Assembly: GCF_000026545.1 (NCBI RefSeq)
Contig: NC_011601.1
Reading direction: 5' to 3' (one strand)
DNA from: Escherichia coli O127:H6 str. E2348/69
Lineage (GTDB): Bacteria; Pseudomonadota; Gammaproteobacteria; Enterobacterales; Enterobacteriaceae
Length of the DNA stretch: 64,000 nucleotides
Below the pieces are notes generated by a model. The model did no database searches. It saw only the letters and a list, made by a program, of their open reading frames with translations, and had not been told where the DNA came from. Of this stretch, positions 3,567-49,219 are shown piece by piece; the stretch's first letter is position 1; each line of letters opens with the position of its first letter. The position numbers were made by a program, and so were the translations under genes.

Positions 3567-3744
3567 ATCCAGCTTGCAAAGAAAATAACGCCCGCCTAGT
3601 ATGTGCGCGTTTTCTTATTCCACAAACTGCAAGGAGGTAAATCATGACAAATCCTTTATCAATGACTCTTTGCAGACCTTTCCAGGATTAATTCTTTTTT
3701 TCTTGCCCTGGATTCGTCTGCCATTTCCTGATTTTTATTCATAA

Positions 3745-14072: not shown

Positions 14073-16624
<2,552 letters not shown>

Positions 16625-46148: not shown

Positions 46149-47576
46149 ATGTCGATCAAAACCAGTAATACAGATTTTAAGACACGCATCCGTCAGCAAA
46201 TTGAAGATCCGATCATGCGTAAAGCGGTGGCAAACGCGCAGCAGCGTATTGGGGCAAATCGGCAAAAAATGGTCGATGAATTGGGGCACTGGGAGGAGTG
46301 GCGCGATCGGGCCGCCCAGATACGTGATCATGTTCTGAGTAATCTCGACGCTTATCTGTACCAGCTCTCAGAAAAAGTGACACAAAACGGCGGTCACGTC
46401 TATTTTGCAAAAACCAAAGAAGACGCCACCCGCTACATTTTACAGGTTGCCCAACGCAAAAATGCCCGGAAGGTAGTGAAATCTAAATCGATGGTGACCG
46501 AAGAGATTGGTGTCAATCATGTGTTGCAGGATGCCGGGATTCAGGTGATTGAAACCGATCTGGGTGAATACATTCTCCAGCTGGATCAAGATCCGCCCTC
46601 TCATGTTGTGGTCCCGGCAATTCATAAAGATCGCCATCAGATCCGTCGAGTGCTACACGAACGTCTGGGCTATGAGGGGCCGGAAACGCCTGAAGCGATG
46701 ACCTTATTCATTCGGCAAAAAATCCGCGAAGATTTCCTCAGTGTTGAAATAGGTATTACCGGCTGTAATTTCGCGGTGGCAGAGACCGGTTCGGTATGCC
46801 TGGTGACCAATGAAGGTAATGCGCGAATGTGTACCACGCTGCCTAAAACGCATATTGCAGTGATGGGAATGGAGCGTATTGCTCCCACGTTTGCAGAGGT
46901 AGATGTATTGATCACCATGCTGGCGCGCAGTGCCGTTGGTGCACGTTTGACGGGATACAACACCTGGCTGACAGGACCGCGCGAAGCGGGGCACGTTGAT
47001 GGTCCTGAAGAGTTTCATCTGGTTATTGTCGATAACGGGCGTTCTGAGGTGCTGGCCTCTGAATTTCGGGATGTGCTGCGCTGTATTCGTTGCGGGGCTT
47101 GTATGAATACTTGTCCGGCATATCGCCATATTGGCGGTCATGGATATGGCTCTATTTATCCAGGGCCAATTGGTGCGGTGATTTCCCCGTTACTTGGCGG
47201 CTATAAAGATTTTAAAGATTTACCCTACGCCTGCTCTTTATGCACCGCTTGTGACAGCGTGTGTCCGGTGCGTATTCCGCTGTCAAAACTGATTTTGCGT
47301 CATCGTCGGGTGATGGCTGAAAAAGGGATCACCGCAAAAGCAGAGCAACGGGCGATAAAAATGTTCGCTTATGCCAATAGTCATCCAGGATTGTGGAAAG
47401 TCGGGATGATGGCTGGTGCTCATGCGGCAAGCTGGTTTATCAATGGCGGCAAAACACCACTCAAATTTGGCGCGATTAGCGACTGGATGGAAGCACGCGA
47501 TCTTCCTGAAGCTGACGGAGAGAGTTTCCGTAGTTGGTTTAAGAAACATCAGGCGCAGGAGAAAAAGAATGGATAA
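46149..47576 (+). CDS. ykgF: 4Fe-4S ferredoxin-type protein YkgF (LutB-like)
   Basis: 475 aa; two CxxCxxCxxxCP motifs ('CIRCGACMNTCPAY', 'CSLCTACDSVCPV'). Confidence 0.85.
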   Translation: MSIKTSNTDFKTRIRQQIEDPIMRKAVANAQQRIGANRQKMVDELGHWEEWRDRAAQIRDHVLSNLDAYLYQLSEKVTQNGGHVYFAKTKEDATRYILQVAQRKNARKVVKSKSMVTEEIGVNHVLQDAGIQVIETDLGEYILQLDQDPPSHVVVPAIHKDRHQIRRVLHERLGYEGPETPEAMTLFIRQKIREDFLSVEIGITGCNFAVAETGSVCLVTNEGNARMCTTLPKTHIAVMGMERIAPTFAEVDVLITMLARSAVGARLTGYNTWLTGPREAGHVDGPEEFHLVIVDNGRSEVLASEFRDVLRCIRCGACMNTCPAYRHIGGHGYGSIYPGPIGAVISPLLGGYKDFKDLPYACSLCTACDSVCPVRIPLSKLILRHRRVMAEKGITAKAEQRAIKMFAYANSHPGLWKVGMMAGAHAASWFINGGKTPLKFGAISDWMEARDLPEADGESFRSWFKKHQAQEKKNG

Positions 47577-48264
47577 TCGGAGCGAATTTTTGAATAACGT
47601 TGCTCAGGCACTGGGTCGCCCGCTGCGACTTGAACCGCAAGCAGAAGATGCGCCGCTTAACAACTATGCTAACGAGCGGCTTACCCAACTTACCCAACAG
47701 CAGCGCTGTGACGCGTTTATCCAGTTTGCCAGCGATGTTATGTTGACGCGCTGTGAACTGACCAGCGAGGCGAAGGCGGCAGAAGCTGCAATACGTCTGT
47801 GTAAAGAGCTGGGAGATCAGTCGGTCGTGATTAGTGGTGACACGAGGCTGGAGGAATTGGGGATTAGCGAACGTTTGCAGCAGGAATGCAATGCCGTTGT
47901 TTGGGATCCGGCGAAAGGTATTGAGAACATATCACAAGCAGAGCAGGCTAAAGTGGGCGTCGTATATGCTGAATATGGTTTAACCGAATCGGGAGGCGTG
48001 GTTCTTTTTTCCGCCGCCGGGCGCGGGCGTTCATTGAGCCTGCTCCCGGAATCTTCTCTTTTTATCCTGCGTAAAAGCACAATCCTGCCGCGTGTAGCGC
48101 AACTCGCAGAAAAATTGCATCAGAAAGCGCAGGCCGGTGAACGAATGCCGTCATGTATTAACATCATCAGTGGTCCCAGTTCAACGGCGGACATTGAGCT
48201 TATCAAAGTCGTCGGGGTTCATGGTCCGGTGAAAGCGGTGTATCTGATTATTGAGGATTGCTGA
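47569..48264 (+). CDS. ykgG: YkgG (LutC-like) protein
   Basis: Start at 'MDNRSEFLNNVAQALGRP', overlapping the ykgF stop by 8 nt; 231 aa. Confidence 0.8.
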   Translation: MDNRSEFLNNVAQALGRPLRLEPQAEDAPLNNYANERLTQLTQQQRCDAFIQFASDVMLTRCELTSEAKAAEAAIRLCKELGDQSVVISGDTRLEELGISERLQQECNAVVWDPAKGIENISQAEQAKVGVVYAEYGLTESGGVVLFSAAGRGRSLSLLPESSLFILRKSTILPRVAQLAEKLHQKAQAGERMPSCINIISGPSSTADIELIKVVGVHGPVKAVYLIIEDC

Positions 48265-48506
48265 GAGAGATATGTAGTCTGGACATAAACCTGAAGGCGG
48301 TATACGAGGTTGTGAATAGCGTTAAGGACAACCTGACTTAACCCCGTTCCGTCATGGTTATGCTGCTCTTCTGTAAATATCCTGACATTAATAATGCCAG
48401 GATATTTACAGTGAAAAAGACAGGAATCCATTCCTGAAGACGGGCTCCCTTCCCGGTCATTGTCACTATAGTTTTATACAGGCACTCTCTGTCAGAATGC
48501 TGTTTA

Positions 48507-49007
48507 TTACTGCCCAGAGTTTTGTTGGTATTCATCTACCATTTTTTTGACAAGGCAAAACATTACAGAAATCACAATACTTAGAAAAAATCCCAGAGCC
48601 AGGCAAATGGCAGCAGGGTATTTATTTTTTATTTCTGGTGAGCTTATAGTGACACAGCCATCACCGTTCGGATACAATGACCAGTTCCTGGTCAGGTATA
48701 TCATTTTTGTATAAAGCTCACTGTTAATTGCTGAAGGCGTTTGTATCTCATCGAGAACTTGCCTGCCATTATGGTATTCTGACGCATACCATTTGATGGT
48801 AGACGCCTGCACGCGAGATATTTCCGCTTCAGCAGTTGGTAAATCTCTCTTATCTCCTGACCATTCCAGCTTTATTTCTCTGTTATACAGAAACAACAGC
48901 ACCATTGCCATACAGATAGCTATAATAAAAAGGATAATACGAATCTTTTTCTTCAGATAAAATAAAATCTCAATCAGATCGATATCCTGTTTTATTTGTT
49001 CATTCAT
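48507..49007 (-). CDS. ykgH: Predicted membrane protein (YkgH-like position)
   Basis: 166 aa ORF with an N-terminal TM helix ('IRIILFIIAICMAMVLLFLY'); conserved position between ykgG and betA. Confidence 0.55.
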   Translation of the reverse strand: MNEQIKQDIDLIEILFYLKKKIRIILFIIAICMAMVLLFLYNREIKLEWSGDKRDLPTAEAEISRVQASTIKWYASEYHNGRQVLDEIQTPSAINSELYTKMIYLTRNWSLYPNGDGCVTISSPEIKNKYPAAICLALGFFLSIVISVMFCLVKKMVDEYQQNSGQ

Positions 49008-49219
49008 AATATATCCAGAAAATGAAATCTGTCGCAGATAATATTGTATTAATAGTCTGTATCAGGAATGTTCGGGTTAAATATCAACGAAAAACCAGAA
49101 TCATGAATACTGGATATGAAGCATGAGAGTTACCTCAGTGTTTTATATAAGGATTCGGTCCTCATAGTAGAACGGTAACTCTCAATCTGATCGGTTCCTG
49201 AGTCAGTTCACATCACGAC

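Follow-up and report, generated by a model that had tools for sequence, protein, structure and literature searches.

Rho-dependent transcripts end immediately past stable stem-loops that lack U-runs, with PNPase and RNase II doing the trimming and with downstream sequence in which C exceeds G (Dar & Sorek 2018, NAR, PMC6061677). The stems of this class are typically terminator-sized. In canonical intrinsic terminators, too, a transcription unit ends in a hairpin; the RNA 3' end lies a few nucleotides past it, and a U-run of about 7 to 8 nt directly follows the GC-rich stem. REP/BIME elements are extragenic palindromes able to cap an mRNA 3' end against exonucleases; they form a multicopy family with a consensus. 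Bidirectional terminators are reportedly shared by convergent genes, and such a hairpin would stand between an A-run and a U-run.

Here, we describe a 41-bp near-perfect palindrome between the convergent genes ykgG and ykgH of Escherichia coli, in a stretch of 64,000 nucleotides from strain O127:H6 E2348/69 (the window). The feature is of a known kind, but this instance had not been described before. It is probably the stem-loop, without a U-run, that ends the ykgEFG mRNA and to which exonucleases would trim back transcripts that Rho terminates downstream. Like the stem-loops of Dar and Sorek, it is a stable stem in the 3' untranslated region (UTR) after a last gene, with no U-tract after it and no A-tract before it, with an RNA 3' end just past the stem (in a single A-tailing dataset, and with a genomic A5 alongside), and with bicyclomycin-sensitive, Rho-dependent read-through further downstream. 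It differs from them in being unusually long, near-perfect, and AT-rich, and the trimming described for the class would here account for a + strand end seen in one dataset. It shares with canonical intrinsic terminators, such as that of ykgH beside it (48412 to 48436), the position at the end of a transcription unit and a 3' end a few nucleotides past the hairpin, but it is AT-rich, has no U-run on either strand, and is read past by polymerases. Like REP/BIME, it is extragenic and could cap an mRNA, but it is single copy and has no relatives. As at bidirectional terminators, the mature RNAs of two convergent genes end within a few nucleotides, but here there are two separate adjacent hairpins, one per strand, and the palindrome lacks the paired A-run and U-run of a shared hairpin. 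At this locus, each of two convergent units has a one-directional element of its own, in one case an intrinsic terminator and in the other a stem-loop that lacks a U-run and is associated with Rho. The two elements are adjacent, and nothing about them challenges current understanding.

Structure of the palindrome

The palindrome (48371 to 48411, assigned to neither strand) lies between ykgG (47569 to 48264, + strand), a gene of the LutC family and the last of the ykgEFG operon, and ykgH (48507 to 49007, − strand), beyond which stands betA. At this locus, the window is 100% identical to strain RM14723. The RefSeq records hold no annotation in the ykgG/ykgH spacer, and the corresponding interval of MG1655 (324454 to 324695) is empty. 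In K-12 MG1655, the palindrome occupies 324560 to 324600; window positions equal MG1655 coordinates minus 276189, and K-12 features were transferred to the window strain by alignment. The 106 nt from the ykgG stop codon to the palindrome (48265 to 48370, + strand) are seen in E. coli only and resemble none of the other loci compared. With them, the 3' UTR of ykgG measures about 150 nt and ends in the palindrome.

The initial annotation had reported a perfect 14-bp inverted repeat with a 13-nt spacer between the two convergent genes, and this description holds: the left arm CTGTAAATATCCTG (48371 to 48384) and the right arm CAGGATATTTACAG (48398 to 48411) are perfectly complementary around ACATTAATAATGC (48385 to 48397). 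The repeat is actually larger. A repeat search extends its arms to 20 nt (48371 to 48390 and 48392 to 48411; 95% complementary) with 1 nt, the center base 48391, between them; the sole mismatch in the window is A/C at 48385/48397. The palindrome is not due to chance: in Markov-1 random sequence, an inverted repeat whose 14-bp arms match perfectly around a loop of at most 20 nt is expected 0.01 times per 64 kb, and the window has two.

As RNA, the palindrome can fold on either strand into a stem of 18 to 20 bp, which is AT-rich (7 of 19 pairs are G-C). The fold energy of the window allele is −20.6 kcal/mol on the + strand (z = −7.2 against dinucleotide shuffles) and −25.1 kcal/mol on the − strand (z = −8.9), and across alleles and strands the values range from −20.6 to −27.8 kcal/mol. 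The more stable hairpin is that of the − strand in the window allele and that of the + strand in the K-12 allele, so that neither strand is consistently preferred. Downstream of the palindrome, the + strand reads TGAAAAAGAC and the − strand AAGAGCAGCA; the + strand tail after the stem is UGAAAAAGAC, and the upstream flank is UAUGCUGCUCUU. These flanks confirm that no U-run (a T-run in the DNA) follows the stem on either strand, and the + strand has no A-run before it. A terminator scan of the window did not call the palindrome, in agreement with the earlier impression that it looks less like an intrinsic terminator.

The best matches of the palindrome in Rfam 15 were spurious ones to eukaryotic miRNA models (22 bits, where the gathering score is 100; E = 0.2), none of the papers searched mentions the 14-mer arm, and the TERMITe supplements gave no match. 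Three small unannotated open reading frames (ORFs) run over the palindrome (27 aa on the + strand, 70 aa and 65 aa on the − strand), none with a visible ribosome-binding site.

RNA 3' ends on the two strands

On the − strand, the ykgH RNA has a terminator of its own. The terminator scan called the small hairpin CAGGAATGGATTCCTG (48436 to 48421), followed by TCTTTTTCAC, which directly abuts the palindrome; the U-run (48412 to 48420) reads UCUUUUUCA on the − strand and TGAAAAAGA on the + strand. This small hairpin and the − strand T-run TCTTTTTCA, immediately upstream of the palindrome, had been overlooked in the initial annotation. Term-seq places the 3' end of ykgH at K-12 324603 in two conditions, at the last U of ...CAGGAATGGATGCCTGTCTTTTT and 3 nt short of the palindrome (Adams 2021). 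The TRS 2023 catalogue lists a "primary" ykgH terminus cluster at 324598 to 324608, with peaks at 324603 and 324600, which correspond to window positions 48414 and 48411. The terminator of ykgH is therefore this small neighboring hairpin and not the conspicuous palindrome. Judged by sequence comparison, it is an element separate from the palindrome and older, because it is kept in a metagenomic contig (L172) with a ykgH homolog that is about 50% identical: the small hairpin and U-run are present there (CAGGAAGGGAATCCTGCTTTTTT), sequence similar to that of E. coli runs precisely up to the palindrome boundary, and no palindrome precedes the next gene.

The ykgH 3' UTR (48411 to 48506, − strand; 97 nt in K-12) ends at this terminator. 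[quoted passage not shown] Its coverage is about 10 times that of the coding sequence in TRS 2023, and likewise in RNA-seq. A − strand Rho region with a score of 3.5 was reported from DirectRNA-seq at K-12 324578 (Adams 2021, supplementary file 2); its equivalent at window position 48389 is of low resolution, since the score was computed over 800-nt windows.

On the + strand, SMRT-Cappable-seq recovered a full-length forward transcript from a transcription start site at 321483 to a termination site at 324602, covering b0306|b0307|b0308 (ykgEFG) and labeled "novelTTS." This end, which had stood unremarked in a 2018 supplementary table, lies 2 nt past the last base of the palindrome (324600). 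In this method, RNA is A-tailed in vitro and primed with an anchored poly-T primer, and 3' A's are trimmed. Since the genome reads AAAAA directly after 324602, the true end may lie anywhere from 324602 to 324607 (48413 to 48418 in the window, by alignment), and internal priming at this AAAAA may conceivably have produced the signal. The + strand end comes from this one dataset; the Term-seq lists of Adams 2021 and the TRS catalogue contain no + strand end at the palindrome and no ykgG terminus, which low expression of ykgEFG may explain.

Read-through of the + strand beyond this end is Rho-dependent. DirectRNA-seq with and without bicyclomycin revealed a + strand Rho region at K-12 324913 (Rho score, 6.7; P = 2e−23), where the reads upstream and downstream numbered 160 and 36 in untreated cells and 172 and 260 with bicyclomycin (Adams 2021, supplementary file 2). 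This score, too, was computed over 800-nt windows. The equivalent position is 48724, antisense to ykgH, which puts Rho-dependent termination about 310 nt beyond the palindrome. As a measure of rut-like sequence, the C/G ratio over the 100 nt directly after the palindrome on the + strand is only mildly raised, at 1.26 (window median, 0.93; 90th percentile, 1.37), and that of the − strand 50 to 150 nt downstream is strongly raised, at 2.75.

These data bear on the initial proposal that the palindrome is a protein-binding site or an element of RNA processing or stability. The RNA half is supported by the ykgEFG end 2 to 7 nt past the stem and by the bicyclomycin-sensitive read-through; the protein-binding half fares poorly, with a single-copy sequence, no known operator spacing, and only a weak SELEX peak (see below). 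The same proposal had been set against a plainer situation, in which the palindrome is simply the ykgG or ykgH transcript terminus and occurs nowhere else in the genome, and this is essentially what we find.

We therefore favor the following mechanism. RNA polymerase on the + strand would transcribe through the palindrome, since no U-run follows to release it, run on antisense into ykgH, and be stopped by Rho a few hundred nucleotides later. The 3'-to-5' exonucleases PNPase and RNase II would then shorten the tail until the hairpin blocked them, leaving a stable mRNA end 2 to 7 nt past the stem. The + strand end would thus be made by trimming and not by direct release, and the hairpin would stabilize the ykgEFG mRNA. 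The ykgH RNA ends on its own small hairpin and U-run, and any read-through on the − strand would gain the palindrome hairpin too. With separate but adjoining ends, the two RNAs would abut at 324600 to 324607, with almost no antisense overlap. The ykgG orthologs of Citrobacter, Pectobacterium, and other Escherichia lineages are followed by unrelated sequences, yet most of these contain, close to the stop codon, a strong hairpin that no U-run follows, and this comparison suggests that any stable stem may serve at the ykgG 3' end. For annotation, the ykgEFG (lutABC-like) operon gains a defined 3' end and a terminal stem-loop.

Distribution across genomes

With a 51-bp query, the palindrome was found in 5,141 of 5,426 complete E. 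coli genomes. The two places per genome that this search returned are one site read on the opposite strands, and the palindrome is therefore single copy. A search for the same motif elsewhere in the genome, which had been proposed as a check, accordingly gave no second copy in any E. coli genome, and none beyond chance within the 64-kb window. Matches in the plasmid collection were only E. coli chromosomal DNA on F-primes or mislabeled chromosomes, and the phage search gave no matches.

Outside the species, the palindrome was found in none of 74 ykgG loci. It is absent from Escherichia sp. E1V33, E. whittamii, a divergent "E. coli" lineage, and Citrobacter, where similarity to the window stops 6 to 9 nt past the ykgG stop codon. 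Scanning metagenomes for the inner arms returned 85 stretches, about 21 of them with the E. coli center and all of these with ykgG/ykgH flanks. The remaining stretches are unrelated hairpins, in which the shared 11-nt arm was demanded by the search pattern; they include a low-GC freshwater terminator cluster, a soil cluster, and a GCCC-NNN-GGGC group. The only match in a viral scan for the arms was unrelated.

The arm 11-mer TAAATATCCTG forms hairpins in unrelated organisms (L088 to L093 and about 40 other metagenome loci). In a low-GC (about 30%) freshwater and marine cluster, the center is TGGCAAATTAAACCA with A and T runs flanking the hairpin, which resembles a bidirectional terminator. A second group (L100, L133, L149, L158, L160, and L168) reads TAAATATCCTG-[GA][CT]CC-NNN-GGG[CT]-CAGGATATTTA, and its flanks are of five different kinds. 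Most likely the hairpins are independent of one another, with the second group recurring more often than has been explained.

Allelic variation and constraint

Four types of center were distinguished within E. coli: that of the window (ACATTAATAATGC, with one arm mismatch), that of K-12 (GTATTACCAATGC), and two that make the palindrome perfect over 20+1+20 nt, namely, the C type (GCATTACTAATGC, strain 23CRST011, L004) and the G type (GCATTAGTAATGC, O145 strain RM9154, L082). The C and G types differ solely by a C/G flip at the exact center (48391); being reverse complementary, they represent a minimal loop inversion. On sequence grounds, such a flip would be the signature expected of hairpin-mediated template switching rather than of a rare C-to-G transversion.

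Among nine strains, about 12% of the spacer columns are variable, against 1 of 28 in the arms and 4 of 13 in the center. Conservation of the arms does not significantly exceed that of the remaining spacer (1/28 versus about 12%; P ≈ 0.14), and the central 13 nt contain 4 of the palindrome's 5 variable positions (P ≈ 0.04). The 14-bp outer arms are identical across alleles of genomes whose spacers differ by about 6%. Covariation is uninformative, since the palindrome occurs in one species only and its arms barely vary: 16 of the 19 pairs never vary, and none changed on both sides.

The palindrome is also dispensable, as shown by strains in which it is damaged. In the lineage of LR-28 and isolate 648, the right arm carries an uncompensated change from ACAG to AAAG, and in RM9088 an IS1A copy (L085, 1527 to 2300) is inserted in the right arm (equivalent to 48398 to 48411) with a 9-bp target duplication, CCAGGATAT. 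The ykgH gene of RM9088 is frameshifted too. These natural variants (IS1 in an arm, an arm point mutation, and perfect and imperfect centers) constitute ready-made tests.

The presence/absence segment

E. whittamii skips from window position 48270 to 49120 and thus lacks 48271 to 49119, revealing that the palindrome, ykgH, and the ykgH promoter belong to a single presence/absence segment of about 850 bp. The GC content of this segment is 31 to 42%, versus 50 to 60% in its flanks. In K-12, a perfect 9-bp direct repeat, GATATGAAG, stands on both sides of it; in the window the repeats are at 48269 to 48277 and 49113 to 49121, and the left copy reads GATATGTAG. The empty site of E. whittamii (L006, about 3680 to 3700) has a single diverged copy of the repeat. 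No terminal inverted repeats were found on the segment. Its presence could reflect an insertion with target duplication, or its absence a deletion mediated by the repeat. The palindrome lies about 100 nt inside it, and each Escherichia lineage has different DNA at this spot.

Just outside the segment, downstream of betA, an inverted repeat with 11-bp arms (TGAGAGTTACC and GGTAACTCTCA, 39 nt apart; 49124 to 49184) is kept in K-12 and in E. whittamii. In the latter it comes directly after ykgG, and betA is seemingly degraded.

Alternative explanations

The palindrome could be a relic at the DNA level, a scar of fold-back, inverted duplication, or template switching from the joining of ykgH and ykgG, with no selected function; hairpin-templated correction would keep it perfect, and its effects on RNA ends would be incidental. 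Its restriction to E. coli in a single copy, exactly at the edge of similarity to the diverged ykgH locus, fits this origin, as does its place in an AT-rich segment that E. whittamii lacks and that 9-bp direct repeats flank in K-12, at a spot varying between lineages. The tolerance of IS1 disruption and of an uncompensated arm mutation, conservation no higher than that of the flanks, and the C/G flip between perfect-arm alleles point the same way. Yet such a history covers the origin of the palindrome and not its present behavior, so that it is compatible with the stem-loop reading, and identical outer arms with variation concentrated in the center suggest either constraint on the stem or a mutation-prone center. 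We regard a relic without function as unlikely, though it is the strongest of the competitors. Somewhat less probable still is a noncanonical intrinsic terminator, in which the long hairpin alone would release polymerase at the weak rA:dT hybrid of the A5 run, without Rho or trimming. An end at 324602 to 324607, 2 to 7 nt past the stem, is at the distance expected for hairpin-driven release, and the hairpin is much stronger than those of typical terminators; but there is no U-run, the consensus terminator scan makes no call, and DirectRNA-seq in the presence and absence of bicyclomycin shows that Rho accounts for substantial termination about 310 nt beyond, so that many polymerases pass the hairpin. 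About equally doubtful is that the palindrome does more than passively cap an RNA: hairpin-templated correction, at which the central C/G flip between alleles hints, could keep it perfect as DNA, and it would mark the junction at which the E. coli-specific unit of ykgH and its sRNA was acquired; or it could be selected for the back-to-back ends of the ykgEFG and ykgH RNAs, or be bound by some protein.

That a dimeric DNA-binding protein occupies the two 14-bp half-sites as an operator is very improbable, even though the outer arms are invariant while the center varies, and genomic SELEX with sigma-E holoenzyme gave a weak peak (intensity, 5.6) in the ykgG/ykgH spacer. This peak (W3110 coordinate 323832; spacer 48265 to 48506 in the window) is a nonpromoter "type C" peak of low resolution. 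No E. coli genome has a second or related site, none beyond chance is found in the window, and the palindrome sits between two gene ends, away from promoters. A distance of 27 bp, or some 2.6 helical turns, separates the centers of the half-sites. The TyrR box is TGTAAA-N6-TTTACA and the LexA box CTGT-N8-ACAG, whereas the palindrome has TGTAAA-N29-TTTACA and CTGT-N33-ACAG and so fails both; to our knowledge, its half-site spacing matches no operator type (TyrR, LexA, LacI family). The least credible reading, already largely refuted, is the end of a mobile element or a recombination site (REP/BIME, MITE, insertion sequence end, or integron attC-like). The location about 100 nt inside a presence/absence segment of about 850 bp with a 9-bp direct repeat would suit it, but there is one copy per genome, plasmid matches are chromosomal and phage matches nil, terminal inverted repeats and an adjacent transposase or integrase are lacking, and every metagenome match with the E. 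coli center carries the ykgG/ykgH flanks.

Other features of the locus and the window

Two candidate identities of the spacer were rejected. It does not hold a ykgQ pseudogene, since ykgQ adjoins ykgA and MG1655 324454 to 324695 is unannotated. Nor is the palindrome the site of AtoC, a protein that binds a 40-bp palindrome: the ykgQ match of the corresponding paper is at the ykgA-ykgQ locus, and its sequence is unrelated.

YkgH is an orphan membrane protein restricted to E. coli, and a Pfam search with it gave nothing reaching the curated cutoff. The window allele encodes 166 aa instead of the 222 aa of K-12, owing to an in-frame deletion of 168 bp whose junction lies near 48881 to 48884, with 4 nt of microhomology. 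Both RM14723 and isolate 648 have this short allele, annotated there as "hypothetical protein," and it forms a 166-aa protein cluster with 170 members. A promoter, GCGACA-16-TATATT, has been reported upstream of ykgH with an H-NS site, and corresponds to 49035 to 49008 on the − strand of the window. In some strains, such as 23CRST011 (L004, 2158 to 2401), the autotransporter gene hyxB and not betA precedes ykgH, and an autotransporter-like C terminus stands just upstream of the diverged ykgH homolog of the metagenomic contig (L172, 2 to 262). For these reasons, an autotransporter gene may be the ancestral partner of ykgH.

The window has just one other long perfect palindrome (14607 to 14654), whose 20-bp arms GCAGGCTCATGAAAGAACTG and CAGTTCTTTCATGAGCCTGC are 8 nt apart. 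It is situated within or between two overlapping + strand ORFs (14402 to 14725 and 14722 to 14997), possibly in a frameshift region of an IS3-family element.
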